45,695 nucleotides of DNA from a phage: assembly GCA_032325415.1 (NCBI GenBank), contig GCA_032325415.1_4119.2. One strand, given 5' to 3'. This document shows positions 5,507 to 18,864 of this stretch, piece after piece (within the stretch, counting starts at the first letter, position 1; the number at the start of each line of letters is the position of its first letter). The notes below the pieces were generated by a model. The model saw only the letters and a program-made list of their open reading frames with translations. It searched no databases and was not told the origin of the DNA. The position numbers and the translations under genes were made by a program.

Positions 5507-5689
5507 ATGACAACATTATCTGAGGTTATCCGCGAGCAAGCTGCGAAAGCTGGAATGACTGTTATTGATGTAGGGATCGAGGTCGAGATCTCCCCTAACG
5601 AATTGCAAGGCATACCCATGCCTACTAGCTGGGATCGTGCGGGGCGTATGATGCGTGATCACTGGACACTAAGCAATAAAGGCGTATAA
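5507..5689 (+). CDS. hypothetical protein (60 aa)
   Basis: SD CCAGGAG then ATG 5507; stop TAA 5687-5689 lies inside the next -10 hexamer. Confidence 0.6.
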   Translation: MTTLSEVIREQAAKAGMTVIDVGIEVEISPNELQGIPMPTSWDRAGRMMRDHWTLSNKGV

Positions 5690-5690
5690 T
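5663..5690 (+). promoter_or_regulatory. sigma70-like promoter embedded in 3' end of upstream gene
   Basis: -35 TGGACA 5663-5668, 16-bp spacer, -10 TATAAT 5685-5690; leader is a duplicate of the 5469-5506 leader. Confidence 0.55.
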
Positions 5691-5728
5691 ACTTTATATC
5701 GAGTTAACACTATCCAGGAGTAACGGCA

Positions 5729-5917
5729 ATGTTTAATATTTTAATCGTTAATGAACAAGGTAACGAGATTGAAACAATTCAATCCCCAATTAATCCGATT
5801 GGTGCTCATAGTCTGGTAACAGAAAAAGCGGTTTATGATTGTATAGAGTTTTCTGCGTCCTTTAAAAATAATCAGATTGTTGTGCACGTTGAAAATGATT
5901 TTATGGAATTTAATTAA
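5729..5917 (+). CDS. hypothetical protein (62 aa)
   Basis: SD CCAGGAGT then ATG 5729; track ORF. Confidence 0.6.
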   Translation: MFNILIVNEQGNEIETIQSPINPIGAHSLVTEKAVYDCIEFSASFKNNQIVVHVENDFMEFN

Positions 5918-5923
5918 AAGTAC

Positions 5924-5951
5924 TTGCAATTAGTTTTCAGTACTGTATAAT
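5924..5951 (+). promoter_or_regulatory. sigma70-like promoter (cassette type)
   Basis: -35 TTGCAA 5924-5929, 16-bp spacer, -10 TATAAT 5946-5951; hairpin AGGGAGAA-ATGG-TTCTCCCT. Confidence 0.65.
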
Positions 5952-6001
5952 GGTTTACATCAAAGGGAGAAATGGTTCTCCCTGGTAATGAGGAAAATAC
6001 A

Positions 6002-6223
6002 ATGGCTAATATCACTACTCTTTCCCAACTGGAAGCACTGGTTAAATCTATGCGGGAACATGCTGACAAAATCGGCGTACAAGATCCAGCCGTTTGCTTC
6101 TGCGACGAATTGAATGATGATACCCTGGTAATAGCAGAAGTCCAGGACGTTTCTAACTATTCCTCGCGTTACACTGGCGGCGTAGCAAATAAAGGCGACT
6201 TCTGTTTATACCTTACAAAATAA
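6002..6223 (+). CDS. hypothetical protein (73 aa)
   Basis: SD GAGGAAA then ATG 6002, in frame with track ORF 5972 whose start lies in the leader hairpin. Confidence 0.65.
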   Translation: MANITTLSQLEALVKSMREHADKIGVQDPAVCFCDELNDDTLVIAEVQDVSNYSSRYTGGVANKGDFCLYLTK

Positions 6224-6228
6224 CAACG

Positions 6229-6258
6229 CGGGGAGATAATAACTCCCCGTTACTTTTT
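6229..6258 (+). terminator. rho-independent terminator
   Basis: CGGGGAG-ATAATAA-CTCCCCG followed by TTACTTTTT. Confidence 0.7.
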
Positions 6259-6391
6259 CAGTACTGAATCATTTAATAGACGGATCTCGGCACCCGGTGG
6301 GTTAGTGACTGTTTCGTCTTGATGTAGTAATTATGCCAGTACTGGATGCACTTGTCAACAATTATTTTTCAAATACTTTTTATTAAAATAC

Positions 6392-6419
6392 TTGCAATTA
6401 GTTTTTAAACGCGTATAAT
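6392..6419 (+). promoter_or_regulatory. sigma70-like promoter (cassette type)
   Basis: -35 TTGCAA 6392-6397, 16-bp spacer, -10 TATAAT 6414-6419; hairpin GGGGA-GCGGT-TCCCC. Confidence 0.65.
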
Positions 6420-6466
6420 GTTTTGCATAGGGGGAGCGGTTCCCCTGGTAACTAAGGAATAAGAAA

Positions 6467-6703
6467 ATGGTCGAACAAATCAAATCAACGTCTGCGAATG
6501 TAACGGGAACGGTATCCCACTTTACTAGTGATGAATCGCGTGGTGTTCCTTATTGTGCTGTACATGTAAACACTGATGGCAACTACTGGTTTACGGTTTA
6601 CGGATCATATTCATTTGGTCGGCCAGGACATCAAAAAATCCTGGATAAAGTACAACCAACGGGTAAAAATATCACTGCCGAAATGTTTTATAAAAAATCA
6701 TAA
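6467..6703 (+). CDS. hypothetical protein (78 aa)
   Basis: SD TAAGGAAT then ATG 6467; track ORF. Confidence 0.65.
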   Translation: MVEQIKSTSANVTGTVSHFTSDESRGVPYCAVHVNTDGNYWFTVYGSYSFGRPGHQKILDKVQPTGKNITAEMFYKKS

Positions 6704-6708
6704 AGTAC

Positions 6709-6736
6709 TTGATAATAGTTTTTAGTACTGTATAAT
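6709..6736 (+). promoter_or_regulatory. sigma70-like promoter (cassette type)
   Basis: -35 TTGATA 6709-6714, 16-bp spacer, -10 TATAAT 6731-6736; hairpin GGGGGAGCGGTTCCCCC. Confidence 0.6.
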
Positions 6737-6787
6737 ATTTTACATCGCAAGGGGGAGCGGTTCCCCCTGGTAACTAAGGATAATCAA

Positions 6788-7087
6788 ATGAAAATTGCAA
6801 TCATCGCCCTGGCTTTATCTGTTTCCTCTTTCGCTGTTAATGCGTCGTTAGATGTAAGTAGTGAAAAATTCATTCAGTGCACTGTTGCAATGACCGATGA
6901 AAGTACTGGCGAGATTGTATTAAAGGATTTAGAGATCCAGCCGGAAGCATTTAAAAACGGCCCGTTCCATGAAGAAGACGAAAAAGGTAGCACGACAATT
7001 TATTACGATGCAAGTACTAAACGCGGTTCGGTCACTGTAATGGATACGGAGAAAGTAACTCATACTGGCGTTATTAATTGCCGTTGA
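6788..7087 (+). CDS. predicted secreted/periplasmic protein (99 aa) with N-terminal signal peptide
   Basis: N-terminus MKIAIIALALSVSSFAVNA has a basic residue, hydrophobic core and AxA-like cleavage context; SD TAAGGAT. Confidence 0.65.
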   Translation: MKIAIIALALSVSSFAVNASLDVSSEKFIQCTVAMTDESTGEIVLKDLEIQPEAFKNGPFHEEDEKGSTTIYYDASTKRGSVTVMDTEKVTHTGVINCR

Positions 7088-7108
7088 TAGATACTACGGG
7101 GTAACATC

Positions 7109-7339
7109 ATGACTAAGCGAATTGTTTTACTTAACGAAAGCAGTACTACACAACTACTTAACGCCGTACATTATGATATTGAAACGAGTGTTAATCTTAT
7201 CAGTACTGTAGTACTATTGGACACTGGAAAGGTCGCCAATGAAAAAGCTATTGCAGGTGTACTAACTGATCTTGAGCCTGGTAGCAGTACACCCATAACG
7301 TTAAATGATAAAGTGTTTAATGTTTTAATTACTGAATAA
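7109..7339 (+). CDS. hypothetical protein (76 aa)
   Basis: Track ORF 22 nt after previous stop; likely co-transcribed; followed by terminator. Confidence 0.55.
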   Translation: MTKRIVLLNESSTTQLLNAVHYDIETSVNLISTVVLLDTGKVANEKAIAGVLTDLEPGSSTPITLNDKVFNVLITE

Positions 7340-7345
7340 GTACAT

Positions 7346-7368
7346 AGCCCACCTGGTGGGCTTTTTTG
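7346..7368 (+). terminator. rho-independent terminator
   Basis: AGCCCACC-TGGT-GGGCT hairpin followed by TTTTTTGTTTTTG. Confidence 0.75.
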
Positions 7369-7421
7369 TTTTTGTAGTATCGTAGTACTGAGATACTTTG
7401 AAAATAGTTTTAAGAAAGTAG

Positions 7422-7449
7422 TTGACATTACCGCAGAAAAGCGTAGAAT
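7422..7449 (+). promoter_or_regulatory. sigma70-like promoter; leader is a diverged variant of the dual-promoter module
   Basis: -35 TTGACA 7422-7427, 16-bp spacer, -10 TAGAAT 7444-7449; hairpin ACGGGGAG...; second putative promoter TTGATA 7523-7528 / TAAACT. Confidence 0.55.
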
Positions 7450-7572
7450 GTATTACATCAAGACGGGGAGCACTAAGTAGACCGCCAGTAAGTCGAACGA
7501 AAAACTGGACACGTCGAGAAAACTTTGATACACTAATAAACGTAAACTAAACTTTAATTGAGGATTTATAAA

Positions 7573-8055
7573 ATGGCTAATGTAAAATCATTCATCAAAG
7601 CACTGGTAGCAAATGAAACTAACGTCGCGGCTGAGATCCTGGCTGAACTGGATAACGATACCATGAAAGCGGTACGCAATAATTTTAACATCGCTTACAG
7701 TACTGCGAAAGAACTACAAGCAAATAAAGCGGCAGAAATTGAAGCGGCAAAGGCGGCCCGTGAAGCAGAACTACAAGCAACAATCGAAAGTATTCAGGCG
7801 GCAGTAGTTGGATTGGATCTGGAAGTAGTTACAGAGATGGCACAAAAAGCCCTGGCGGTTAAGTATGGGGAAGACAAGCCAGAAGTAAAAGCCAAAAAAT
7901 GGATTCAGGAACGCGTAGCGGTAGTACTGGACAACGGGGAAGAATATCTGATTCCGGTGCGTGGTAACTGCATTGCGGTAGTACTGGACGCGATTAACGC
8001 CAGCGGTATGACTCGCGAGGAATGGATCGAATCTCATCGCAAAGTTGAAGCATAA
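7573..8055 (+). CDS. hypothetical Ala/Glu-rich protein (160 aa)
   Basis: SD TGAGGAT then ATG 7573, in frame with track ORF 7558. Confidence 0.65.
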   Translation: MANVKSFIKALVANETNVAAEILAELDNDTMKAVRNNFNIAYSTAKELQANKAAEIEAAKAAREAELQATIESIQAAVVGLDLEVVTEMAQKALAVKYGEDKPEVKAKKWIQERVAVVLDNGEEYLIPVRGNCIAVVLDAINASGMTREEWIESHRKVEA

Positions 8056-8076
8056 CAATTAAAGTACTGAATCACT

Positions 8077-8104
8077 AGCCCACCTTAAACGGTGGGCTTT
8101 TTTG
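8077..8104 (+). terminator. rho-independent terminator
   Basis: GCCCACC-TTAAAC-GGTGGGC followed by TTTTTTGTG. Confidence 0.8.
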
Positions 8105-8257
8105 TGTTTATCGTTTACCAGGCCACCAGCACCGCCTAGAAACGATTCTAACGCATTAAACTGATTATCTGATGCATTGCCCTAGCTGGTGGCGTTAAGG
8201 CTGTAAGAACGCGATTGAGAGCGTTTAAAGTATTTTGCAAAAAGTAATAAAAAGTAC

Positions 8258-8285
8258 TTGCACGATTAAGAGATTAGCGTATAAT
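8258..8285 (+). promoter_or_regulatory. sigma70-like promoter (cassette type)
   Basis: -35 TTGCAC 8258-8263, 16-bp spacer, -10 TATAAT 8280-8285; GTTTTACATC then GC hairpin. Confidence 0.65.
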
Positions 8286-8340
8286 GTTTTACATCGAGAG
8301 GGGGAAACGGTTCTCCTTCCAAATCAAAGGAATCAAAACA

Positions 8341-8568
8341 ATGGCTATTATCATTACTCGCGTATCTGGTACTACTGGCAACGAACAAGTAGTTGCAGTC
8401 ATTACCAATAAGGAAGGTGCGGAATTGCAAAATGCAATGAATACCTGGGCCGTTAATGAGTTCGGTCAGTGGGCTAGTGTAGCATACATTGAAACCTATC
8501 AAGTGCCGTCGATTAGTTTAACTGATTTGGGCGTTGAGCGTATCCTTTGCCTGGATGAATTAAATTAA
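8341..8568 (+). CDS. hypothetical protein (75 aa)
   Basis: SD AAAGGAAT then ATG 8341; track ORF 8284 start lies inside the promoter. Confidence 0.65.
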   Translation: MAIIITRVSGTTGNEQVVAVITNKEGAELQNAMNTWAVNEFGQWASVAYIETYQVPSISLTDLGVERILCLDELN

Positions 8569-8576
8569 AAAAGTAC

Positions 8577-8604
8577 TTGCAAAGTAAATCGAATAAAGTA
8601 TAAT
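8577..8604 (+). promoter_or_regulatory. sigma70-like promoter (cassette type)
   Basis: -35 TTGCAA 8577-8582, 16-bp spacer, -10 TATAAT 8599-8604; hairpin GGGGAGAA-ATGG-TTCTCCCC. Confidence 0.65.
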
Positions 8605-8653
8605 ACATTACATCAAGGGGAGAAATGGTTCTCCCCACTACAAGGAAACTAAA

Positions 8654-8797
8654 ATGAAAACTTGTCAATGTGGTCAGAAATCTATTACGGGTTTAAAGCG
8701 GGGCGTTGCTCTTTGCCAGTACCATTATAATTTACAAGTATGGGGTAAAGAATGGGCCGATCAAGTGGAAGCAATCAAGAAAGCAAAAAGTAAGTAA
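8654..8797 (+). CDS. small Cys-rich protein (47 aa), not in ORF track
   Basis: Complete cassette (promoter, hairpin, SD AAGGAAA, ATG 8654) with ORF MKTCQCGQKSITGLKRGVALCQYHYNLQVWGKEWADQVEAIKKAKSK; possible metal-binding CxC...C..H. Confidence 0.55.
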   Translation: MKTCQCGQKSITGLKRGVALCQYHYNLQVWGKEWADQVEAIKKAKSK

Positions 8798-8809
8798 AAA
8801 TATTATCAC

Positions 8810-8845
8810 AGTACTATTGACATAGTTTGATAGTACTGGCATAAT
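8810..8845 (+). promoter_or_regulatory. promoter with operator-like inverted repeat AGTACTAT-N12-ATAGTACT
   Basis: AGTACTAT 8810-8817, -35 TTGACA 8817-8822, ATAGTACT 8830-8837, -10 CATAAT 8840-8845. Confidence 0.6.
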
Positions 8846-8878
8846 AGATTTTATCAAGACAACTAAGAGGAAATTAAA

Positions 8879-9223
8879 ATGGCTAACATCAACACTATCG
8901 CAGCACAAAATATCAACCTGTCTTCTGTTGAAGTTGTACATATTGCCGCTCGGCGTTGGTTCCAGGCTTCATATGGTAACACTTATTTCTCTTTAAGTGT
9001 AGACGTAGAAATTGATGGTAATTTTATTGAAGTAGTAAACGTGCCGTTCCAATATGGATACGGGGATCACTTTGACACTGTAGCAATGGAAGAATTTAGC
9101 AAGGTTATTAATATGGAAGATAAAGAGTTTTTACGCGGTTCTTATCTTTCCCGTTTTTGCCGTGACAATAATATCACTGTTTACAGTTCGGTAACTGATG
9201 TTAAACGCAAAAAAGATCTTTAA
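8879..9223 (+). CDS. hypothetical protein (114 aa), distant paralog of 15482..15805
   Basis: SD TAAGAGG then ATG 8879; shares RW..GNTY and C-terminal DVKRKKD with 15482..15805. Confidence 0.65.
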   Translation: MANINTIAAQNINLSSVEVVHIAARRWFQASYGNTYFSLSVDVEIDGNFIEVVNVPFQYGYGDHFDTVAMEEFSKVINMEDKEFLRGSYLSRFCRDNNITVYSSVTDVKRKKDL

Positions 9224-9303
9224 TTAGCTTTACTTTATGCAGATACTTTGATATAGTGTCTGCATAGGGGAAAGAAATTAAATTAACTTAAGAGGATAGT
9301 ATA

Positions 9304-9573
9304 ATGAAAAATATCAGTACTTTAATCGATGCAGGTACTCATGTTCGTCGGTCTATGGTTGCAACCAGTACTACAAAACAAGTAGCGAGCGGTTATCTTG
9401 TATTTGTGCACGATGGAAAACTCCTGGAACGTTCAATCAATTTTGATGTTAAAAACAATTGCCGTTTTATTATCTTTAAGCGTGAGCAATATAAAATTGA
9501 TTTGCCAGCGAAGCCCATTAGCGGGGCGTATAACGTCTATTCATTGTTTGAGCGTCAACCATACACCTATTAA
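9304..9573 (+). CDS. hypothetical protein (89 aa)
   Basis: SD TAAGAGGA then ATG 9304; preceded by hairpin ATGCAGA-N-TCTGCAT 9236-9266. Confidence 0.6.
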   Translation: MKNISTLIDAGTHVRRSMVATSTTKQVASGYLVFVHDGKLLERSINFDVKNNCRFIIFKREQYKIDLPAKPISGAYNVYSLFERQPYTY

Positions 9574-9624
9574 TCAAAACATCGTTAGCGGTCGATTTAG
9601 GCCGCTTATATTGGGGATTATACC

Positions 9625-9897
9625 ATGAACGTTAATCAAGTACTGAATGAAGTTGAAAGCATCATTAAACCAATGAAACGCATTGATGCTATGTTAACAC
9701 CGGAAGAATGCCGCCTTTATGAGCGTTACAGCGTCGAACAAGTCCAGGCAATGGCTATGGCTACCCCAGCCGTTAAACCGCCTGAGAATGCGTTACAGGA
9801 CGTTACAGGGGATTATATCATTAATCCAGTACTAGGGAAGATGGCTGCAATCACCGAAGATCAACAAGACTACTTAAGCCAGTACTTAAAAGGTTAA
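9625..9897 (+). CDS. hypothetical protein (90 aa)
   Basis: Track ORF; SD GGGGA upstream. Confidence 0.55.
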   Translation: MNVNQVLNEVESIIKPMKRIDAMLTPEECRLYERYSVEQVQAMAMATPAVKPPENALQDVTGDYIINPVLGKMAAITEDQQDYLSQYLKG

Positions 9898-9902
9898 TTA
9901 AT

Positions 9903-10112
9903 ATGCTTACTGTACAGGATAAGATCGACATCTTAAAGGTTAATATGTATGTGATTGATGCCGTACCTGGTAAAGTATTTGCATACGATGATAGTACTGT
10001 AAGCGATTTCTACTATAGCCAGGCCGTGGGGGATCTTTCTGTACAGTCGGTTATTGAAAATGTAGTTAATGCAGCGTATGAGCATTTACTTTCAAATAGT
10101 ACTTGCAATTAG
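9903..10112 (+). CDS. hypothetical protein (69 aa)
   Basis: Track ORF 5 nt after previous stop; its stop TAG 10110-10112 lies immediately after the next -35. Confidence 0.55.
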   Translation: MLTVQDKIDILKVNMYVIDAVPGKVFAYDDSTVSDFYYSQAVGDLSVQSVIENVVNAAYEHLLSNSTCN

Positions 10113-10130
10113 TTTTTAAACGCGTATAAT
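10103..10130 (+). promoter_or_regulatory. sigma70-like promoter (cassette type)
   Basis: -35 TTGCAA 10103-10108, 16-bp spacer, -10 TATAAT 10125-10130; hairpin GCGGGAATAGTTCCCCC. Confidence 0.65.
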
Positions 10131-10182
10131 GTTTTACATCGAGAGCGGGAATAGTTCCCCCCTCACTTTTAAGGAATATGAA

Positions 10183-10329
10183 ATGAAAGCATCAAAAAAG
10201 AGTACTAACAAGAAAGCACGTTCAACCTTAGATGGGGTATTCCCTTTACGTTTCGTTGATGAAGTGGTTTCCTACCCGCCTGGCCTTACTCCTGAGATGG
10301 TAGAAAGTTTGCGTAAATCTAAAAAATAG
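10183..10329 (+). CDS. small basic protein (48 aa)
   Basis: SD AAGGAAT then ATG 10183, in frame with track ORF 10129 whose start is in the promoter. Confidence 0.55.
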   Translation: MKASKKSTNKKARSTLDGVFPLRFVDEVVSYPPGLTPEMVESLRKSKK

Positions 10330-10332
10330 TAC

Positions 10333-10360
10333 TTGCAATTAGTTTTTAGTACTGTATAAT
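10333..10360 (+). promoter_or_regulatory. sigma70-like promoter (cassette type)
   Basis: -35 TTGCAA 10333-10338, 16-bp spacer with CAGTACTG, -10 TATAAT 10355-10360; hairpin GGGGAGAA-ATGA-TTCTCCCC. Confidence 0.65.
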
Positions 10361-10410
10361 GTTTTACATGAAGGGGAGAAATGATTCTCCCCAATAACAG
10401 GAGAAACAAA

Positions 10411-10563
10411 ATGAAACAATACAACGCTCGGTTTGATGTTACTATCGGTAACGGCAAAGGTCAATTCTCTTTCAGTACTCGCCGCAGTTATACAGAAAAC
10501 TTCCTGCGTAATTGTGCACTGACCGCCGCTCAAATTAAACATTACTTTCAGGCTAAAAAATGA
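10411..10563 (+). CDS. small protein (50 aa)
   Basis: SD CAGGAGA then ATG 10411, in frame with track ORF 10381. Confidence 0.55.
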   Translation: MKQYNARFDVTIGNGKGQFSFSTRRSYTENFLRNCALTAAQIKHYFQAKK

Positions 10564-10649
10564 GATCATTAGCTTATTACAGTTCGGCCCTGGTCGGTGC
10601 ATTGATCGCGGCGTTGTTAGTAACCTATCTATTCTTTATGGTGATTTAA
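10560..10649 (+). CDS. small hydrophobic membrane peptide (29 aa)
   Basis: ATG 10560 overlaps upstream stop (ATGA); MRSLAYYSSALVGALIAALLVTYLFFMVI is a single predicted transmembrane helix; not in track. Confidence 0.45.
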   Translation: MRSLAYYSSALVGALIAALLVTYLFFMVI

Positions 10650-10784
10650 ATGAATCCTAACGGTATAGTTTACAGTACTCCTAAAACGAAAGCAGATAAA
10701 GCTAAAGCACGTAAAGCGAAAGTAAAGGAGTACATCAAGCAAGGCATGACACGAAAGGCCGCAGTACTTAAAGCTAAAAAATAA
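10650..10784 (+). CDS. small Lys-rich basic protein (44 aa)
   Basis: ATG 10650 directly follows the previous stop (TAAATG); MNPNGIVYSTPKTKADKAKARKAKVKEYIKQGMTRKAAVLKAKK; not in track. Confidence 0.4.
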   Translation: MNPNGIVYSTPKTKADKAKARKAKVKEYIKQGMTRKAAVLKAKK

Positions 10785-10787
10785 ATG

Positions 10788-10882
10788 AAAAAAGTGGTTG
10801 ACTTCGGTCAGCCATTTTGCTATTATATATTCATTGAGAGATAGCTCACTAGCCCACAGGGTGCAGGAGTGTATCTATTATA
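10788..10882 (+). repeat. R module copy 1: terminator-like hairpin with embedded promoter plus conserved core AGCCCACAGGGTGCAGGAGTGTATCT
   Basis: Hairpin GTGGTTGAC-TTCG-GTCAGCCAT (wobble-compensated), -35 TTGACT 10798-10803, -10 TATTAT 10821-10826; homologous to 14813, 17527, 19497. Confidence 0.65.
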
Positions 10883-10920
10883 TGAGTATTGAGTACTGAA
10901 AACTATTTTTAAAAAAGTAC

Positions 10921-10948
10921 TTGCAAACTATCTCAATAAGCGTATAAT
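10921..10948 (+). promoter_or_regulatory. sigma70-like promoter (cassette type)
   Basis: -35 TTGCAA 10921-10926, 16-bp spacer, -10 TATAAT 10943-10948; hairpin AGGGGAAAC-G-GTTTCCCCT. Confidence 0.65.
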
Positions 10949-10999
10949 GTTTTACATCGAAAGGGGAAACGGTTTCCCCTGGTAATAAGGAAACAAATC

Positions 11000-13044: not shown

Positions 13045-13050
13045 AAAGTA

Positions 13051-13107: not shown

Positions 13108-13464
13108 ATGGGAATACAACATATCACGCGTACTACTGACAATGGCGAGATCACTGGCTATCAAGTACAGGGCAAAGTAGCACAATTGCAGTACTGGTTT
13201 GTTAAACGTGGAATCATTGCACCGGATCTTGATTATGACCGTGTAGCGTTTATTGATTCTCTTTATGTTGATCCTGATAGTCGGGGGAATGGTGAAGGTA
13301 ACGAATTAATGAATGCCTTTATTGATGCCGCCGATGATTCAGATTGTATCATCTTAGAATGCGATACGGGAGAAGATAACGCCTTTAATCTTAAAGAATG
13401 GTATGAAGGTTTCGGATTCGAGGTACTGATCGATAGTGAATATCCTATCATGATTTTATCATAG
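13108..13464 (+). CDS. putative GNAT-family N-acetyltransferase (118 aa)
   Basis: SLYVDPDSRGNGEGNELMNAF resembles GNAT motif A (R/Q-x-x-G-x-G/A acetyl-CoA loop) and EWYEGFGFE resembles motif B; SD TGAGGAT. Confidence 0.55.
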   Translation: MGIQHITRTTDNGEITGYQVQGKVAQLQYWFVKRGIIAPDLDYDRVAFIDSLYVDPDSRGNGEGNELMNAFIDAADDSDCIILECDTGEDNAFNLKEWYEGFGFEVLIDSEYPIMILS

Positions 13465-13467
13465 TAC

Positions 13468-13496
13468 TTGCATTTAGTTTTCAGTACTGTTATAGT
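13468..13496 (+). promoter_or_regulatory. sigma70-like promoter (cassette type)
   Basis: -35 TTGCAT 13468-13473, 17-bp spacer with CAGTACTG, -10 TATAGT 13491-13496; hairpin AGGGGAA-ACATC-TTCCCCT. Confidence 0.55.
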
Positions 13497-13542
13497 ACTT
13501 GCATCAAGGGGAAACATCTTCCCCTACTAAGAGGAAATAAAA

Positions 13543-13731
13543 ATGGAAAACTTATCAAGTATTTTAGTACAAGATGATTTCGGTAATCCTGGAAGTGCTA
13601 TCATTGTTCGGGGTAATAAAGCAACATTTGTTATTGCTGGTGGACCTGTACAGCGTAGCATTAAAAACAATGCCGTTACTATTAATAATGTACGCTATCG
13701 CTTAGATAAAGAATTGATTCATAAACTGTAA
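13543..13731 (+). CDS. hypothetical protein (62 aa)
   Basis: SD TAAGAGGA then ATG 13543; track ORF. Confidence 0.6.
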   Translation: MENLSSILVQDDFGNPGSAIIVRGNKATFVIAGGPVQRSIKNNAVTINNVRYRLDKELIHKL

Positions 13732-13758
13732 TATTAATTTAATAGAGGATAACAATAA

Positions 13759-14082
13759 ATGTACATTCATACTACTATCACAAAGGAAGTCCGTTGCCAG
13801 TTCGAAAGTATTCCGGGCGTATGTTTCATCACTGGTACGTTTTCCCCTGGTGATCGTGATAATCCAGTACTGTTACAATTACGCCATCCATCATGGGATA
13901 AAGCATTTGATCTACCGTTGAATGAATTCGCAACTACTGCTGAAAAGTACATTAAAAATATTCGCGAGAATGATCGACTATTCATTAATGCTTTTAGTGA
14001 TTCCGCGTTAAGCGAGATCCACGGCGTATTGGTTGCAATCATGGAATCAATGCAGAAAACTAAATTCAAACAAGGTGAATAA
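13759..14082 (+). CDS. hypothetical protein (107 aa)
   Basis: SD AGAGGA then ATG 13759; track ORF; overlapping minus-strand ORF 13767..14177 rejected. Confidence 0.6.
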   Translation: MYIHTTITKEVRCQFESIPGVCFITGTFSPGDRDNPVLLQLRHPSWDKAFDLPLNEFATTAEKYIKNIRENDRLFINAFSDSALSEIHGVLVAIMESMQKTKFKQGE

Positions 14083-14088
14083 AAACTA

Positions 14089-14116
14089 TTGACAATGCAA
14101 TCCAGTACTGTATAAT
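14089..14116 (+). promoter_or_regulatory. sigma70-like promoter (cassette type)
   Basis: -35 TTGACA 14089-14094, 16-bp spacer with CAGTACTG, -10 TATAAT 14111-14116; hairpin GGGGAGAA-ATGA-TTCTCCCC. Confidence 0.65.
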
Positions 14117-14165
14117 AAGTTACATGAAGGGGAGAAATGATTCTCCCCACTGAGAGGAAAGAAAA

Positions 14166-14378
14166 ATGCAAGGTCAACTAATCGTTCGTAAATGGTCTGA
14201 TACTAACGAAAAACCGTGGGATGTACAATACATCGGACCGGATGGGGTATCACGTTATCAGCCTGGCGTAACGCATAGTACTGAGCAATTCGCCAACGCT
14301 CACCGCGAACGCCTGTTAGAATCCATGAAACAGGGATACGGTGAAAAATTCATTCAAGATCATTGGCTGAAAGATTAA
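14166..14378 (+). CDS. hypothetical protein (70 aa)
   Basis: SD TGAGAGGA then ATG 14166; track ORF. Confidence 0.65.
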   Translation: MQGQLIVRKWSDTNEKPWDVQYIGPDGVSRYQPGVTHSTEQFANAHRERLLESMKQGYGEKFIQDHWLKD

Positions 14379-14395
14379 TATAAGGAGTACAGCTT

Positions 14396-14488
14396 ATGCA
14401 AATGAATCCGATGATTATTGTTTTAGCTGTACTTATGATCATTCATGCAATAGTAGAAGTATTAACGCAATCAGGAGTAATAAAATGA
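14396..14488 (+). CDS. small hydrophobic membrane peptide (30 aa)
   Basis: Strong SD TAAGGAG then ATG 14396; MQMNPMIIVLAVLMIIHAIVEVLTQSGVIK; not in track. Confidence 0.5.
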   Translation: MQMNPMIIVLAVLMIIHAIVEVLTQSGVIK

Positions 14489-14658
14489 TTCAAGTAGAAT
14501 TATCAGTACTGAAAGATCTGTTTTATCGGTTAGGTACTACTGGAGAGTATCCTAAAAGTGATACCGCAAAACTTTTTGTATCACTCGACTTATGGCAACG
14601 CGAACAATTAGTAATGTCCTGGCGTAAAGGTAAAGCAGATAGCGAGGTGAAAGCATGA
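14485..14658 (+). CDS. small protein (57 aa)
   Basis: ATG 14485 overlaps upstream stop (ATGA) with SD CAGGAG inside the upstream ORF; not in track. Confidence 0.45.
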   Translation: MIQVELSVLKDLFYRLGTTGEYPKSDTAKLFVSLDLWQREQLVMSWRKGKADSEVKA

Positions 14659-14804
14659 AAGAATTCTTATTCGAAGTAGTGTTTCAAGGTGTCGGTAGTA
14701 ACCAACTGATTCGCTCAAGTGGTTATAATGTTAACCAGGCATGGAATAACATTAAACAAATGTACCCGAACGCTATCACCTATCGCAACCCGAAAGAAGT
14801 TTAA
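14655..14804 (+). CDS. small protein (49 aa)
   Basis: ATG 14655 overlaps upstream stop (ATGA); SD GAGGTG; not in track. Confidence 0.45.
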   Translation: MKEFLFEVVFQGVGSNQLIRSSGYNVNQAWNNIKQMYPNAITYRNPKEV

Positions 14805-14812
14805 AAATATTT

Positions 14813-14900
14813 GAAAAAGGGATTGACTCCGGTCAGTCCCTTTGCTATTATATACGCATAGAAACAAATCAGCCCACAGGGTGCATAAATGTATCTATTG
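14813..14900 (+). repeat. R module copy 2 (terminator-like hairpin, embedded promoter, conserved core)
   Basis: AAAAAGGGATTGACTCCGGTCAGTCCCTTT hairpin; -35 TTGACT 14823-14828, -10 TATTAT 14846-14851; core AGCCCACAGGGTGCATAAATGTATCT. Confidence 0.65.
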
Positions 14901-14935
14901 TTTGCTGGTGGCTAGTACTGAAAACTATTTTTAAA

Positions 14936-15117
14936 AAGTACTTGCATTGTACTTAGAATCAAGTATAATGTTTTACATCAGGACGGGGAACGAAACAAGT
15001 AACCCCGTTAAGTAGTCCAGGAGTAAGACATAAGAAAACCTCCCCTGATAAAATAGTTTGACAATAGAAAGTAAAAGAGTATAATACTTACATCAACCAC
15101 TGATAAGGAAACATAAA
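14936..15117 (+). repeat. dual-promoter leader module, copy 2 (near-identical to 3990-4172)
   Basis: Promoter A (-35 TTGCAT 14942-14947, -10 TATAAT 14964-14969), hairpin ACGGGGAA...CCCCGT, conserved AAGTAGTCCAGGAGTAAGACATAAGAAAACCTCCCCTGATAAAATAG, promoter B (-35 TTGACA 15058-15063, -10 TATAAT 15080-15085). Confidence 0.7.
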
Positions 15118-15393
15118 ATGCGGATTCTACTGACAGCTAACGAAATCGAACAAGTACTGACTACTAACCTGGAAGACTGGAAACGTGAAGCAGATATCCA
15201 GGCGGTTCAACGGCTTAACGATGAGTTAACGCCGGATGACTTAAGCAAGATTGTAGATCCTCAATTCTACGAAGATATCCACGACACCGCGTTAAGCGTC
15301 GAGGATGTACTAGATAAGCACTACATTGATATTGATTTGCAGGTTTACGGTCGTAAAAACTTTATCACTATTCACGACATTTACAATAATTAA
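15118..15393 (+). CDS. hypothetical acidic protein (91 aa)
   Basis: SD TAAGGAAA then ATG 15118; track ORF. Confidence 0.65.
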   Translation: MRILLTANEIEQVLTTNLEDWKREADIQAVQRLNDELTPDDLSKIVDPQFYEDIHDTALSVEDVLDKHYIDIDLQVYGRKNFITIHDIYNN

Positions 15394-15396
15394 GTA

Positions 15397-15424
15397 TTGA
15401 CAAAGTATCTTAGTACTGTATAAT
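15397..15424 (+). promoter_or_regulatory. sigma70-like promoter (cassette type)
   Basis: -35 TTGACA 15397-15402, 16-bp spacer with AGTACTG, -10 TATAAT 15419-15424; hairpin GAGGGGAA-ACGG-TTCCCCTC. Confidence 0.65.
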
Positions 15425-15481
15425 AGTTTACATCAAGTGAGGGGAAACGGTTCCCCTCCTAACAAAGAGAGAGAAATAAAA

Positions 15482-15805
15482 ATGGCTATGATCCTTACCC
15501 AGAAAGTGGAACTGAAAATTGTAACCTCCTTTGACATTAACGTTAATCGGTGGACTGATTCACACGGCAATACTTACCACTCTTGCTACGTGTCTGCTTT
15601 AATTGGCGACCGCTGGGAAGACCTGGGACACGAAACCTTTACATACGGTTACGGTACACAAGGCGAATACACGGGCTTGGAGATCATTAAAGAAACCGTT
15701 ATAGGTTTCAACCCGAAAGAAAAAGTTATTCACCGCATCGAGGAAGAGATCAACAAAGAAATAACAGTTCGCTACCACGATGTAAAACGTAAGAAAGACA
15801 TGTAA
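15482..15805 (+). CDS. hypothetical protein (107 aa), distant paralog of 8879..9223
   Basis: ATG 15482 in frame with track ORF 15437 whose start is in the leader hairpin. Confidence 0.65.
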   Translation: MAMILTQKVELKIVTSFDINVNRWTDSHGNTYHSCYVSALIGDRWEDLGHETFTYGYGTQGEYTGLEIIKETVIGFNPKEKVIHRIEEEINKEITVRYHDVKRKKDM

Positions 15806-15819
15806 TAGAATCCATTTAA

Positions 15820-15856
15820 AGTACTATTTGACATTGCCCAGATAGTACTTTATAAT
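15820..15856 (+). promoter_or_regulatory. promoter with operator-like inverted repeat AGTACTAT-N14-ATAGTACT
   Basis: AGTACTAT 15820-15827, -35 TTGACA 15828-15833, ATAGTACT 15842-15849, -10 TATAAT 15851-15856. Confidence 0.6.
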
Positions 15857-15900
15857 AGACTCTAACTTGTAGTACTAACTCAACTAATAGGATGTATACC

Positions 15901-16296
15901 ATGATTACTAAATTCTACGCTACCCGTGAAGCTGCCCGTATTGTTGCACGCGAGGAAGGAGCAGCATTTAAAGACATGGGCAAAGATGCACCGAAAGGCC
16001 AACGCTGGGCCGTACAGTTCAAAGAGATCTCTGATATTGTGAATTCACCTGAGCCAGTACTAACAGCAGCAGAACTAAAACGAGCGGATTTACTGGCGTC
16101 AATACTTGATGCACAAGATGAGTTTATCGCTGATTCTGATATCAAAGTACAGACAAACCATACCGCTTGGACTCACGCGGATCACCTGGCAAACCTGAAG
16201 CGTCCAAGTGAACTGGTACGCAACCAGAAAGAGATCCGACACGACCGTAAGGGTAATCGTGTAACAGTATACAGTAAACGCCGCCAGGTTATCTAA
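15901..16296 (+). CDS. hypothetical protein (131 aa), paralog of 3163..3429
   Basis: ATG 15901 chosen by paralog alignment and SD AGGAT spacing; track start 15892 is an alternative. Confidence 0.6.
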   Translation: MITKFYATREAARIVAREEGAAFKDMGKDAPKGQRWAVQFKEISDIVNSPEPVLTAAELKRADLLASILDAQDEFIADSDIKVQTNHTAWTHADHLANLKRPSELVRNQKEIRHDRKGNRVTVYSKRRQVI

Positions 16297-16318
16297 TAAC
16301 TTGCAGTACTAACAACAC

Positions 16319-16344
16319 GGCGGGATCAGTTCCCGCCTTTTTTA
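16319..16344 (+). terminator. rho-independent terminator
   Basis: GGCGGGA-TCAG-TTCCCGCC followed by TTTTTTAT. Confidence 0.8.
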
Positions 16345-16357
16345 TAGGACAAACAAA

Positions 16358-16612
16358 ATGATTAAGGTTCAACTATATAAAGATAATATCTTGCGGGTAC
16401 ACTATAAAGCCCCTCAGAGAATCATCACAAAGGCCGTACAGCTTGCTAATGAGTTTATTAATGGTAACCTATTACCTAGGAAGTTAAGCAACGGGAAACT
16501 GCGTGTAATCGACGTGGACACTAACAACAGGATAGTAATCGAGAACACAGGAAAGATAAACCTTTATGAGCATCAACAATACAATAAGAAAATAAAACTA
16601 ATATCACGTTGA
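16358..16612 (+). CDS. hypothetical protein (84 aa)
   Basis: Track ORF downstream of terminator; weak SD. Confidence 0.5.
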   Translation: MIKVQLYKDNILRVHYKAPQRIITKAVQLANEFINGNLLPRKLSNGKLRVIDVDTNNRIVIENTGKINLYEHQQYNKKIKLISR

Positions 16613-16637
16613 CAGTACTCAAATGTTTTAGTACTAT
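16609..16637 (+). promoter_or_regulatory. putative sigma70-like promoter
   Basis: -35 TTGACA 16609-16614, 17-bp spacer, -10 TACTAT 16632-16637. Confidence 0.45.
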
Positions 16638-16666
16638 ATGTACATACCAACACGGGGAGAAACAAA

Positions 16667-16909
16667 ATGATTACTTTAGAAAAACGTATCAAAGAAACTA
16701 CATCGCTGGTGGAACTGTTAACAGTACTCAAATGTAAAACTACTCGGTTTAGTACACCGGACTTTATTAATATGGTTGATGTTAATGGTCGCTATCGTAT
16801 CACGGTCGAACAAGGAGCGGCGAAAGTATTCAGTACTAAAAACACTAAGGAAGTGATTCACGCTGTAAGTGTTAAAAAAGTAGTTGCCATTGATAGTAAA
16901 GTACTGTAA
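16667..16909 (+). CDS. hypothetical protein (80 aa)
   Basis: SD GGGGAGA then ATG 16667; track ORF. Confidence 0.55.
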   Translation: MITLEKRIKETTSLVELLTVLKCKTTRFSTPDFINMVDVNGRYRITVEQGAAKVFSTKNTKEVIHAVSVKKVVAIDSKVL

Positions 16910-16940
16910 GATAGTTTCATTAACTCAAGGAGAACATGCA

Positions 16941-17525
16941 ATGCGTAATTATACTAAATTCATCCGTACCCTGTCAGAAATGGAAACCAACAAAGAGATC
17001 CTTTCAGCTTGTCGGTTAGCTGGTCTGGAGATCATCGGTGCGGGTTCTTCCCGTATTGTATTCGCTTTAAATGATCGGTTAGTGATTAAGGTCGCGAATT
17101 GTGATGCGGGTGTAGAACAAAATGAAACTGAATGTAAGGTATGGAATTTTTTAGATTATGACCGCCCTCAATTGAAACAGTACTTTGCAAAGGTGCATAT
17201 GCATTTATGCGATCCTGATAATATGTTTATCGTTATGGATCGGTTGAGTACTGCAAGTAAAGGCAGTGTAAAGCACGTAAACGCGTGCAATGAATTAAAG
17301 TACAATATTAAACGTAATGCCATTGAACGCCAGCACCGCTTTGCTGATGCACTACAACACGTTGATGATACATTATCAACACTAACGATAAGAGATATCA
17401 GAAAACAGAATATCGGCCAGGATCGTAATGGCCTTATTAAAGTACTTGATTACGGTTTAACCCGCAATATCTGGAATCAGTACTATAAAAAGCGTGATGT
17501 AGAAGCAAGTAAGGTAACACGATAA
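16941..17525 (+). CDS. putative small protein-kinase-like protein (194 aa)
   Basis: SD AAGGAG then ATG 16941; motifs IGAGSSRIVF (Gly-rich loop), LVIKVA (VAIK-like Lys), IRDIRKQNIG (HRD-x-K-x-x-N-like catalytic loop), KVLDYGL (DFG-like). Confidence 0.55.
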   Translation: MRNYTKFIRTLSEMETNKEILSACRLAGLEIIGAGSSRIVFALNDRLVIKVANCDAGVEQNETECKVWNFLDYDRPQLKQYFAKVHMHLCDPDNMFIVMDRLSTASKGSVKHVNACNELKYNIKRNAIERQHRFADALQHVDDTLSTLTIRDIRKQNIGQDRNGLIKVLDYGLTRNIWNQYYKKRDVEASKVTR

Positions 17526-17526
17526 A

Positions 17527-17612
17527 AAAAGATTAAAAAAGGGATTGACTCCGGTCAGTCCCTTTGCTATTATATATTCATTGAGAGATAACTCACTGAC
17601 CCATAGGGTGCG
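17527..17612 (+). repeat. R module copy 3 (terminator-like hairpin, embedded promoter, conserved core)
   Basis: AAAAAAGGGATTGACTCCGGTCAGTCCCTTT; -35 TTGACT 17545-17550, -10 TATTAT 17568-17573; core GACCCATAGGGTGCGGAAGTGTATCT. Confidence 0.65.
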
Positions 17613-17666
17613 GAAGTGTATCTATTATATAAGTATTCAGTACTGAAAACTATTTTTAAAAAGTAC

Positions 17667-17694
17667 TTGCATTGTACTTAGAATCAAGTATAAT
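17667..17694 (+). promoter_or_regulatory. sigma70-like promoter (cassette type)
   Basis: -35 TTGCAT 17667-17672, 16-bp spacer, -10 TATAAT 17689-17694; hairpin GAGAGGGGAA-ATGG-TTCTCCCTC. Confidence 0.65.
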
Positions 17695-17747
17695 GTTTTA
17701 TATCGAGAGGGGAAATGGTTCTCCCTCAAAGAACAAGGAATAAAATC

Positions 17748-17969
17748 ATGACTACAATGACTTGCATTCACGCTTCAAACCTGCTTAATGATGCGGCCTT
17801 TAATGTTGAAACAGAATATCAATGTTATCGGGATGAAAATAAAAAAGTTTTTGTAGTTGATAATAATGGTTTCCATATTGAATTGCAATCCGGCTTCACT
17901 GGCGTTGATGGTAAATCAGTATGGGGAGTACAGGATGATAAAGGCACATATCATTTTAAACGTAATTAA
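17748..17969 (+). CDS. hypothetical protein (73 aa)
   Basis: SD AAGGAAT then ATG 17748, in frame with track ORF 17715. Confidence 0.65.
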   Translation: MTTMTCIHASNLLNDAAFNVETEYQCYRDENKKVFVVDNNGFHIELQSGFTGVDGKSVWGVQDDKGTYHFKRN

Positions 17970-17972
17970 GTA

Positions 17973-18000
17973 TTGACAAAGTATATCAGTACTGTATAAT
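17973..18000 (+). promoter_or_regulatory. sigma70-like promoter (cassette type)
   Basis: -35 TTGACA 17973-17978, 16-bp spacer with CAGTACTG, -10 TATAAT 17995-18000; hairpin GGGGAGAA-TAG-TTCTCCCC. Confidence 0.65.
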
Positions 18001-18053
18001 AGTTTACATCAAGGGGAGAATAGTTCTCCCCACCAATAAAAGGAAACAAAATT

Positions 18054-18326
18054 ATGTCCAGCTACTCCGCTACTATGATTATTAAAGATATGAACGGTAA
18101 TCCTACTTCTGCTGGTGGATCATTTGGTAACATTAACTTAGATGGGCGGTTATCAATTGAATCAGCCATCAATGCCGCGAAAGAAGTTTTTAAGAATGAA
18201 TGTACTGTAAGCAAGCTGGATTATATGGGCTTCGCTATCGAGAAAACTAATCGTTTTGTGGACTACAAAAAACCACTGATGATCGATACTAACCTGAAAG
18301 CTAACGAAGTGGAATACTTATTATGA
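18054..18326 (+). CDS. hypothetical protein (90 aa)
   Basis: SD AAAGGAAA then ATG 18054; track ORF. Confidence 0.65.
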   Translation: MSSYSATMIIKDMNGNPTSAGGSFGNINLDGRLSIESAINAAKEVFKNECTVSKLDYMGFAIEKTNRFVDYKKPLMIDTNLKANEVEYLL

Positions 18327-18514
18327 CAGTAGAAGAAGTTAAAAAAGTACTGGCAGTACTACGCTATCATAATCATTGCAAGGTGAAGAATGATCCTGAT
18401 TATGTTGATTCATCCCTGGAGGAAGACACATTAAACGCAATAAGCCATATGCAAAAAATGCTTAAGCGTATGACCGAAAAGAACAGGCCAGACTATATCG
18501 GAAATAAAATTTAA
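18323..18514 (+). CDS. hypothetical protein (63 aa)
   Basis: ATG overlaps upstream stop (ATGA), translational coupling; track ORF. Confidence 0.55.
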   Translation: MTVEEVKKVLAVLRYHNHCKVKNDPDYVDSSLEEDTLNAISHMQKMLKRMTEKNRPDYIGNKI

Positions 18515-18521
18515 AAAGTAC

Positions 18522-18549
18522 TTGCATTGTAGTTAGATTAACGTATAAT
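18522..18549 (+). promoter_or_regulatory. sigma70-like promoter (cassette type)
   Basis: -35 TTGCAT 18522-18527, 16-bp spacer, -10 TATAAT 18544-18549; hairpin GCGGGGGAA-TAG-TTCTCCCGC. Confidence 0.65.
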
Positions 18550-18600
18550 GTTTTACATAGAGCGGGGGAATAGTTCTCCCGCCAGTCCAGGAGATACACC

Positions 18601-18864
18601 ATGAACACTATCGAAATCACTATCAATGCACACGTATACGACAACGTAGTACTGCAAACTACTATGACCGCCAATGATACCAGTACTTTGCGGAATGCCG
18701 TTGTAAGTGCTGTATGTGCTGCAATCGGTGATGTAGCCCTGGAAAATGCAGAACACATCAACAACGGTTTCACTATGTGCAAACGTGATAACGCAAAACA
18801 TATCATCGTAGAAGGTTACGGCGGTGTAGAATTTAATGTTTATATGAAAAAAGTACTTGCATAA
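18601..18864 (+). CDS. hypothetical protein (87 aa)
   Basis: SD CCAGGAGA then ATG 18601; last codons overlap the next -35. Confidence 0.65.
   Translation: MNTIEITINAHVYDNVVLQTTMTANDTSTLRNAVVSAVCAAIGDVALENAEHINNGFTMCKRDNAKHIIVEGYGGVEFNVYMKKVLA

Follow-up and report, generated by a model that had tools for sequence, protein, structure and literature searches.

Stop codons embedded in early promoters of an Asteriusvirus terminal repeat: probable scars of shuffling between repeated cassettes

The closest described systems are the promoter-early stem-loop (PeSL) cassettes of the T4-type phages RB49/phi1, PST and nt-1 (Arbiol et al. 2010, PMC2839356; Comeau et al. 2014, PMC4122927), in which the upstream gene stops within the AT-rich part and recombination between copies has been described. 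The window that we analysed (the whole stretch of DNA, 45,695 nucleotides) resembles them in that it carries repeated intergenic modules of ~100 bp amid small genes of unknown function, each with a strong sigma-70-type promoter and a G-tract/C-tract stem-loop, then a Shine-Dalgarno sequence and a start codon at the 3' edge. The upstream gene likewise terminates in the AT-rich 5' part, and it is at the cassettes that related phages differ by insertions, deletions and replacements; where one phage has a gene between two cassette copies, another has just one copy, as for the gene 5507..5689. The phage, however, is an Asteriusvirus jumbo phage and not a T4-type phage, which concerns the host range of the concept rather than its structure, and the array lies within a terminal repeat of ~21 kb. 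Most stem-loops are here in the leader, after the predicted transcription start, and lack a T-run; only a minority class (10791, 14816, 17538 and 19501) resembles PeSLs in that its stem-loop is placed over the -35. Terminator/attenuator action and the formation of small circular DNAs by recombination between neighbours are features of PeSLs that are hypothetical for the present cassettes. A further difference is that a few upstream genes here extend as far as the core promoter.

Morons of lambdoid phages, which consist of a gene with its own promoter and terminator inserted between other genes, are similar in being autonomous small expression units that are gained or lost and differ between close relatives. 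Morons are, however, single insertions with unrelated flanks, while dozens of units here share one homologous linker, and exchange seems to take place in the linker itself. By its layout, a long direct terminal repeat full of small early genes with very strong sigma-70 promoters, the region also recalls the terminal repeat of T5, where the pre-early genes are under strong host-type promoters. To our knowledge, stepwise DNA entry has not been described for Asteriusvirus, nor repeated cassettes with embedded stops for T5.

Judging from its sequence, the window comes from a jumbo coliphage of the genus Asteriusvirus (PBECO4/121Q group) and represents its early-gene, terminal-repeat region; the relatives are placed in Caudoviricetes; Asteriusvirus. 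By portal phylogeny, the resemblance of Rak2-like phages to T4 is only distant (PMC5259590). Position 1 of phage fEgEco12, whose direct terminal repeat is 20,993 bp long (PMC13070987), aligns with position 660 of the window, and fEgEco12 19497-22325 aligns with 19489-22340. The small genes of the cassette region code for 45-200 aa, most have no family match, and their content varies among relatives. The large-scale features are the following.

660..21000, no strand: equivalent of the fEgEco12 direct terminal repeat (~21 kb), from the alignment; right edge approximate
1025..20160, + strand: predicted early-promoter cassette array, ~30-42 near-identical copies, from the consensus of 29 copies and the weight matrix
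6228..6250, + strand: terminator-like hairpin and T-run (from sequence), closing the unit of promoters 5441, 5663 and 5924
10791..10818, + strand: stem-loop around the -35 TTGACT (terminator/promoter composite, from sequence), closing the unit of promoter 10103
14816-14843, 17538-17565, 19501-19528: sister copies of the stem-loop 10791-10818

The cassette begins with an A-rich part that ends in AGTAC, followed by TTGCAA, TTGACA or TTGCAT, a spacer of 16 nt (sometimes 17 nt) and TATAAT; then come gTTTTACATC, the G-tract/C-tract hairpin, the Shine-Dalgarno sequence and ATG. The 29 copies with a 16-nt spacer give the sigma-70-type consensus AAAAAgtAc-TTGcaA-16-TATAAT. A position weight matrix was built on 26 of these cassettes, leaving out the three promoters under study, which score 16.8 bits (promoter 5663), 55.6 bits (10103) and 37.0 bits (18857), against a family median near 50; since the best score among 20 shuffles is 12.5 bits, the three are not chance matches to hexamers. 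Scanning the window with this matrix returns 30 hits that score 15 bits or more; every one is on the + strand, from 1025 to 20093, and there are none past 20093. The leader hairpin reaches -8 kcal/mol or lower in 22 of the 29 cassettes and begins 1-6 nt 3' of the predicted transcription start; compensatory changes are seen between copies at five of its seven consensus pairs. These hairpins, which have no T-run, may stabilise or attenuate the transcripts. Terminator-like sites are absent between most cassettes. Among the stem-loops of the cassettes, only the class at 10791, 14816, 17538 and 19501 looks terminator-like, and its equivalents carry a terminator annotation in phage G17. Transcription data for the Asteriusvirus group were not found in the literature searched, so that promoter activity is assumed from sequence, and the cassettes are predicted to fire as early promoters.

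The sequence-only reading had placed the stops of three genes in or against the promoter of the next gene, and direct reading of the DNA confirms the three positions. At the first of these junctions, the last 10 codons of the upstream gene (DHWTLSNKGV) traverse the promoter.

5507..5689, + strand: 60-aa gene (ORF with homologues), TAA 5687-5689 within TATAAT 5685-5690
5663..5690, + strand: promoter, -35 TGGACA 5663-5668, 16-nt spacer, -10 TATAAT 5685-5690
5462..5498, + strand: 37-nt perfect direct repeat (100% identity), copy 1 (GTATAAT, leader and AGGAG)
5684..5720, + strand: copy 2 of this repeat, which holds the -10 hexamer and the embedded stop
5729..5917, + strand: downstream gene served by promoter 5663-5690

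Promoter 5663 is the weakest member of the family; its A-rich upstream part is missing in the window, its upstream side is G+C-richer coding DNA and its leader has no hairpin. The copies of the 37-nt repeat flank the gene at a spacing of 222, so that the -10 and start region of promoter 5663 are perfect copies of those of the neighbouring cassette. The gene 5507..5689 has homologues in SP27 (with another tail) and in Erwinia phage Hallingskeid (85 aa). PBECO4 has 5729..5917 but lacks 5507..5689, SP27 lacks 5729..5917, and promoter 5663 stands behind another gene in PBECO4, UB and SP27. Across three phages, the TGGACA/TAGACA promoter is read in all three frames, and the resulting tails before the stop are DHWTLSNKGV, KSTGH and KVLDTKQ.

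The second junction involves a near-consensus promoter with 10/12 matches to TTGACA/TATAAT, the -35 TTGCAA being a cassette variant.

9903..10112, + strand: 69-aa gene, TAG 10110-10112, one base past TTGCAA 10103-10108
10103..10130, + strand: promoter TTGCAA-16-TATAAT, -10 at 10125-10130, 55.6 bits
10141..10164, + strand: leader hairpin past the predicted start (~10138), -9.2 kcal/mol; weak, z -0.6
10183..10329, + strand: downstream gene, start supported by a Shine-Dalgarno sequence

The cassette supplies the final codons of the upstream gene, aat agt act tgc aat tag, which read N S T C N stop. The promoter is kept in SP27, G17, PBECO4, A4 and 121Q; in the EJP2 homologue of the gene, where the cassette differs, the tail is NVDSTIK instead of NSTCN.

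At the third junction, the gene closes with aaa aaa gta ctt gca taa, codons that agree with the cassette over its upstream part and -35.

18601..18864, + strand: 87-aa gene, TAA 18862-18864 overlapping the final base of TTGCAT 18857-18862
18857..18884, + strand: promoter TTGCAT-16-TATAAT, -10 at 18879-18884, 37.0 bits
18895..18913, + strand: leader hairpin GGGGGAG-5-CTCCCCC, -15 kcal/mol, z -2.35
18932..19156, + strand: downstream gene, phrog_24380

This promoter is identical in G17, A4, SP27 and PBECO4. It is absent from EJP2, in which the gene shares the bases ATGA with its downstream neighbour and ends in KKVTA (KKVLA in the window) with no promoter following. It may therefore be that the -35 at 18857 arose inside native coding sequence, rather than by the gene running into a cassette.

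A fourth case, missing from the earlier reading, is found at promoter 16609, which is kept in five relatives while the downstream gene varies among them.

16358..16612, + strand: 84-aa gene with a ParE-like toxin domain, TGA 16610-16612 within TTGACA 16609-16614
16609..16637, + strand: probable promoter TTGACA-17-TACTAT, 10/12 matches

These four sites are exceptions. All other upstream stops in the window lie 6-33 nt before the -35, mostly in the A-rich part of the cassette, and across seven genomes 151 of the 171 junctions have the upstream stop within the AT-rich 5' part, the stop falling inside the core promoter at the other 20 (~12%); the median position is -10 from the -35. Promoter DNA offers TGA in TTGACA, TAA in TATAAT, and TAA or TAG in the AT-rich spacer, and 75% of frames are stopped between entry into the -35 and the end of the -10, compared with 51% at random positions. 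This enrichment is modest, and selection beyond AT-richness is not needed to account for it.

We consider that the embedded stops are scars of cassette-mediated shuffling and deletion, the short C-terminal tails being translated promoter sequence, and we give this reading a probability of about 0.75. It follows from the reading of one promoter in three frames, from a deletion of ~14 nt that created an overlap, from tails that depend on the cassette, and from the concentration of breakpoints in cassettes. The deletion is seen in PBECO4 and SP27, where the loss of ~14 nt between TTAAA repeats took out the natural stop, so that the ORF now enters the promoter; at the same position, 121Q, G17 and A4 retain an ORF ending in YVLKQLN and its stop, then a normal cassette. 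Regarding breakpoints, homology with six relatives gives 74 unique endpoints, and 39 of them are inside cassettes, where 21.8% would be expected from the share of the region that cassettes occupy (binomial p=5.9e-9), with the proviso that BLAST endpoints are imprecise, homology between cassette copies extending the alignments, and that about half of the endpoints lie outside the cassette intervals. Phage A73 (Vequintavirinae) has these cassettes and small genes in a different order, and phage nepoznato (Phapecoctavirus) has cassettes of the same type.

The proposed mechanism would start from small genes that each stand behind one copy of the repeated cassette, the upstream gene normally stopping in its A-rich part, at a distance of 6-30 nt from the -35. 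Recombination between copies, together with deletions at their edges, would insert, delete or swap genes; where a gene lost its own stop or was joined to the middle of a cassette, translation would continue into promoter DNA until the first in-frame stop, the AT-rich promoter serving as a backstop where translation terminates. The recombination would proceed by homologous exchange, by analogy with what has been proposed for PeSLs; the overlap coordinates, the cassette membership, the frames and tails, the deletion and recombination joints and the breakpoint enrichment are direct observations.

The sequence-only reading had seen in this tight packing a constraint acting on coding and promoter function at once. 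The same bases do serve as last codons and as promoter, but a balanced double constraint is not supported, as frames differ and tails follow the cassette: the three-frame reading and the EJP2 tail NVDSTIK indicate that the promoter sequence sets the tail and not the reverse, 18601..18864 (KKVLA/KKVTA) being the only possible exception. The same reading had suggested that translating ribosomes may occlude the embedded promoters, which is not supported and is not a sensible mechanism, because it is mRNA that ribosomes bind and read, not promoter DNA. Its other suggestion, read-through transcription, is plausible given the lack of terminator-like sites between most cassettes, but has no dependence on embedded stops: it applies to every cassette, including the ~88% of junctions without one. 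The conservation that it asked about is real, the overlaps at 10103, 18857 and 16609 being kept across five or six Asteriusvirus relatives. One could therefore regard the overlaps as a selected regulatory arrangement, in which the passage of ribosomes or of read-through RNA polymerase tunes the downstream gene; the likelihood of read-through and the KKV(L/T)A tail kept in EJP2 without a promoter would agree with this. We find it quite improbable, since the frame over one identical promoter varies between phages, the tails change with the cassette, the overlaps originate by deletion or recombination, and the overlapped bases are no more conserved than those of non-overlapped cassettes, besides the objections already made to ribosomes and read-through.

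It is also unlikely, if a little less so, that at least one embedded promoter is a non-functional relic, the downstream gene being expressed by read-through from the upstream cassette, with no real overlap. This would concern above all 5663-5690, given its low score, its -35 TGGACA, its G+C-richer upstream side without an A-rich part, its leader without hairpin, and the strong promoter 5441 located 222 bp upstream with no terminator between. On the contrary, the perfect copy of the neighbouring -10 and start region, the 16-nt spacing and the retention of this promoter behind another gene in three relatives argue for function, and promoters 10103 and 18857 are near-consensus. That the overlaps are wrong ORF calls or sequencing errors, the true genes ending earlier, is very improbable: the ORFs are short (60-87 aa) and mostly without family match, but identical ORFs and ends are found in many independently sequenced phages, homologues exist in other genera (as in Erwinia phage Hallingskeid), and the ParE-like domain of 16358..16612 is recognisable and aligns to residue 77-81 of 84.

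We note that a conserved palindrome, (C)AGTACT(G), adjoins both promoter hexamers of the cassettes, -35 and -10. AGTACT is over-represented 13-17-fold, and (C)AGTACT(G) 6- to 17-fold throughout the genome, including coding DNA in all three frames.

A more speculative extension, which we regard as doubtful, is that the cassettes are a common exchange module of unrelated lineages of large coliphages and that AGTACT is, in addition, a candidate factor-binding site. The lineages would be Asteriusvirus, Vequintavirinae and Stephanstirmvirinae, between which small early genes may have moved, and (C)AGTACT(G) may be a putative site for a phage or host factor that controls the cassette promoters or the recombination between them. 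If the exchange-module reading is true, the embedded stops and promoter-encoded tails would be datable scars of single exchange events.

Taken as scars of shuffling, the overlaps are an ordinary side effect of exchange between repeated cassettes, and not a new regulatory principle or device. For annotators, the caution is that many small phage proteins end in a few residues that come from translation of a promoter and are not functional sequence. The embedded stops show in detail how small early genes are acquired, lost and rewired in a very large phage, the promoter cassette doubling as a recombination linker and as a backstop that ends any fused reading frame, and they carry the PeSL idea beyond T4-type phages, to jumbo coliphages and their terminal repeats.

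The stop codons of four genes lie within, or touch, the core of the next predicted promoter. Three of these overlaps had been pointed out in the sequence-only reading, and direct reading of the sequence agrees with the positions of the three stops; we add a fourth, at the end of a gene of the early region that codes for a ParE-like toxin domain (Pfam PF24732, E=6e-11). The junctions are named by the first base of the -35 hexamer.

Stop codons embedded in the next promoter (+ strand)
Junction 5663: gene 5507..5689; TAA 5687-5689 within the -10; -35 TGGACA 5663-5668; -10 TATAAT 5685-5690
Junction 10103: gene 9903..10112; TAG 10110-10112, one base past the -35; -35 TTGCAA 10103-10108; -10 10125-10130
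Junction 16609 (fourth case): gene 16358..16612, ParE-like toxin domain; TGA 16610-16612 within the -35 TTGACA 16609-16614
Junction 18857: gene 18601..18864; TAA 18862-18864 on the last base of the -35; -35 TTGCAT 18857-18862; -10 18879-18884

Among the eight genes that flank the four junctions, PHROG and Pfam searches return only this ParE-like domain and two families of unknown function. Gene 5972..6223, whose stop lies within TTACAA-16-GATAAT, was considered as a fifth case and rejected, because the site does not belong to the promoter family but is a hairpin that, with its T-run, resembles a terminator. The other upstream ORFs of the window end within the cassette's A-rich part, with the stop 6-33 nt 5' of the -35. 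Over 171 junctions from the window and six relatives, the median stop is 10 nt before the -35, and the stop is inside the core promoter at 20 (12%). Embedded stops are therefore the minority tail of a general layout in which each gene end abuts a promoter.

These promoters belong to about 30-42 copies of a single cassette, on the + strand between 1025 and 20160. The consensus of the 29 copies that have a 16-nt spacer reads AAAAAgtAc, TTGcaA, the spacer, TATAAT and gtTTTACATC, after which come a G-tract/C-tract hairpin, a ribosome-binding site rich in purines, and ATG. A weight matrix from which the three sites of the sequence-only reading were withheld scores them at 16.8 bits (5663), 55.6 bits (10103) and 37.0 bits (18857), against a maximum of 12.5 bits in shuffled sequence; it finds 30 matches of at least 15 bits, all 30 on the + strand and none beyond 20,093. 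Judged by this matrix, the predicted promoters at the three sites are real members of the repeat family. When the RNA is folded from the conserved CAT, 22 of the 29 copies form a hairpin of -8 kcal/mol or lower, which starts 1-6 nt from the predicted 5' end, and compensatory changes among the copies are seen in 5 of the 7 consensus pairs. The literature searched holds nothing specific on transcription start mapping or promoters in Asteriusvirus, and the papers on CBB and rV5 give sigma-70 promoters as predictions only.

A second class of cassette has a stem-loop around a -35 TTGACT, then TATTAT or CATAAT (3778-3870, 10791-10900, 12462-12560, 14816-14920, 17538-17650 and 19501-19600, with a related hairpin at 1899-1918). 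Next comes a conserved segment of about 60 nt (GCCCAYAGGGTGC...TGTATC), which contains G-U pairs and folds into a hairpin on the + strand only, and then directly another promoter. No member of this class has a match in Rfam; the members are candidates for short RNAs or for terminator/promoter composites. Tandem promoter pairs at 3995-4172 and 14942-15117 enclose a long structured leader (ACGGGGAAC...CCCCGT...) without any gene, a layout also seen in phage A73 of the Vequintavirinae (locus L011, 1391-1587).

The region that holds the cassettes is mosaic, since its best matches are 92-97% identical and yet none of the records spans more than 69% of the query. These figures come from a megablast search with window 5000-20000, which matched 138 phage records, the best being the Asteriusvirus Escherichia jumbo phages SP27, E9.1, CRJP21, fEgEco12, PBECO4, 121Q and G17. 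Phage fEgEco12 has a direct terminal repeat of 20,993 bp (PMC13070987); window 660 aligns to its position 1, and the end of the repeat is near window 21,000. All genes are on the + strand. No tRNA or tmRNA was found in the window, and an Rfam scan of its whole length at gathering thresholds gave no match. About 2 kb (357-2300) contain no long ORF; this stretch spans window 660, where the physical end of the fEgEco12 genome matches, and also has a long hairpin (1182-1215) and two promoter-like sites (925 and 1025). Window 21104-45619 carries more than 100 small + strand genes whose stop and start codons overlap and which lack a cassette promoter, including evident paralogues such as 21104..21301 (ending EDITSKL) and 21495..21704 (ending EDIKSKL).

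The endpoints of colinear megablast alignments between window 1-21,000 and six relatives were taken as homology breakpoints. Cassette intervals make up 21.8% of this region and contain 39 of the 74 unique endpoints (binomial p=5.9e-9); several of the endpoints outside are just a few bases away from an interval.

The comparison with relatives was also made junction by junction. At 5663, PBECO4 and SP27 have the same promoter and leader, but behind another gene, and the frame that enters the promoter differs: it ends ...KSTGH*, with TAA directly past the -35, in PBECO4, ...KVLDTKQ*, with TAA in the spacer, in SP27, and ...DHWTLSNKGV*, with TAA in the -10, in the window. In 121Q, G17 and A4, the gene that precedes this promoter in PBECO4 and SP27 ends ...YVLKQLN*, with a normal cassette after it. 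Between two TTAAA repeats, PBECO4 and SP27 are about 14 nt shorter; with the natural stop thereby lost, the ORF continues into the promoter, and a single A difference in a homopolymer run shifts the frame between the two. In the window, gene 5507..5689 lies between perfect 37-nt direct repeats (GTATAAT, leader and AGGAG); it is absent from PBECO4, and its neighbour 5729..5917 is absent from SP27. Its homologue in SP27 has a different tail, and the version of Erwinia phage Hallingskeid has 85 aa. From these sequences, the joint would be in the spacer, at ACTAAG, a short stretch that the native 3' region of the gene shares with the spacer of a cassette resembling the one at 4797.

Conservation of the overlaps in relatives holds for the other three junctions, but not for the frame at 5663. 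At 10103, cassette DNA (aat agt act tgc aat tag) makes up the tail N-S-T-C-N-stop, which five relatives share. The homologous gene of EJP2 precedes a TTGACA cassette, and its tail is ...NVDSTIK*, the stop being a TAG of the spacer. Five relatives also retain the promoter of 16609 with its embedded TGA, but their downstream genes are of two unrelated kinds. Junction 18857 is identical in four relatives, and in EJP2 the gene ends ...KKVTA* with an ATGA overlap with the next gene and no promoter. It may be that the last codons at 18857 are native, and that they gave rise to the -35 or were joined to it through a short match.

Could the cassettes be selected to stop translation? Among frames entering at the -35, 75% reach a stop before they leave the -10, compared to 51% at random positions of the same region. 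TATAAT supplies TAA in one frame and TTGACA supplies TGA in another, while the third often meets TAA or TAG in the spacer. All three frames are stopped in only about half of the cassettes, however, and we rejected selection for three-frame stops on these figures. We claim no selection for stops, because the enrichment is modest and AT-richness suffices.

The interpretation given in the sequence-only reading finds partial support. It also proposed that the embedded promoters may be subject to read-through transcription, or occluded by translating ribosomes. Occlusion does not stand: ribosomes work on mRNA, and cannot occlude promoter DNA. Read-through fares better. Terminator-like sites are few in the window, and stem-loops that enclose a -35 TTGACT are of a type annotated as terminators in phage G17.

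Terminator-like sites and related stem-loops
6228-6250: terminator-like site
7346-7362: terminator-like site
8077-8098: terminator-like site
16319-16337: terminator-like site
10791, 14816, 17538, 19501: stem-loops enclosing -35 TTGACT

Each of the four junctions lies within a unit of several promoters with no terminator-like site between them, so that read-through over the embedded promoters is likely; it is equally to be expected where a cassette carries no embedded stop.

The window has 201 copies of the palindrome AGTACT, whose extended form is C-AGTACT-G, for 12.8 ± 3.4 expected. In many cassettes, its last base doubles as the initial T of the -35, and it also lies directly 5' of the -10, the two 20 nt apart.

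Examples of AGTACT
5436-5441
5456-5461
10098-10103
18852-18857

Most copies are outside cassettes, and 118 are in coding DNA (45/28/45 in the three frames). AGTACT sites show higher conservation than the average hexamer (86% versus 64% in 121Q, 77% versus 45% in EJP2), and is 6-fold enriched in a 50-kb structural region of fEgEco12. Two blocks, 20,876-26,047 and 28,714-36,414 (about 12.9 kb in total), are free of it, and adjoining blocks have 4-7 per kb; insertions of foreign DNA, or a functional domain of their own, may explain the free blocks. The SlmA site of E. coli is GTGAGTACTCAC; AGTACT as its core was rejected, the flanking C and G being in the opposite arrangement. The literature searched holds nothing relevant on AGTACT or CAGTACTG in phages.

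The closest description is that of the promoter-early stem-loop (PeSL) cassette of T4-type phages, in which an upstream stop in an AT-rich part is followed by a strong sigma-70 promoter, a G/C stem-loop and a Shine-Dalgarno sequence; PeSL are located in hyperplastic regions, where recombination between copies leads to gene gain, loss and replacement (PMC2839356; PMC4122927). At the level of sequence, every PeSL feature that we checked is found in the window cassettes. Unlike PeSL, they belong to another phage lineage, sit in a terminal repeat and, in most copies, have the stem-loop 3' of the predicted start site. No description of such cassettes in Asteriusvirus was found in the literature searched. 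Outside this genus, similar ones occur in phage nepoznato (Phapecoctavirus) and in the Erwinia jumbo phage Hallingskeid, and A73, which is of a different subfamily, has one copy that is 94% identical over 69 nt. A73 also has four of the same small early genes (73-84% nucleotide identity), in another order, each behind a cassette of the same type.

Small early genes shared with phage A73 (1530-3069)
Window 8279-8793
Window 11421-11712
Window 2823-3077
Window 11081-11307

The overlaps between gene ends and promoters are an ordinary outcome of cassette-mediated shuffling and compaction, and not a new regulatory mechanism.
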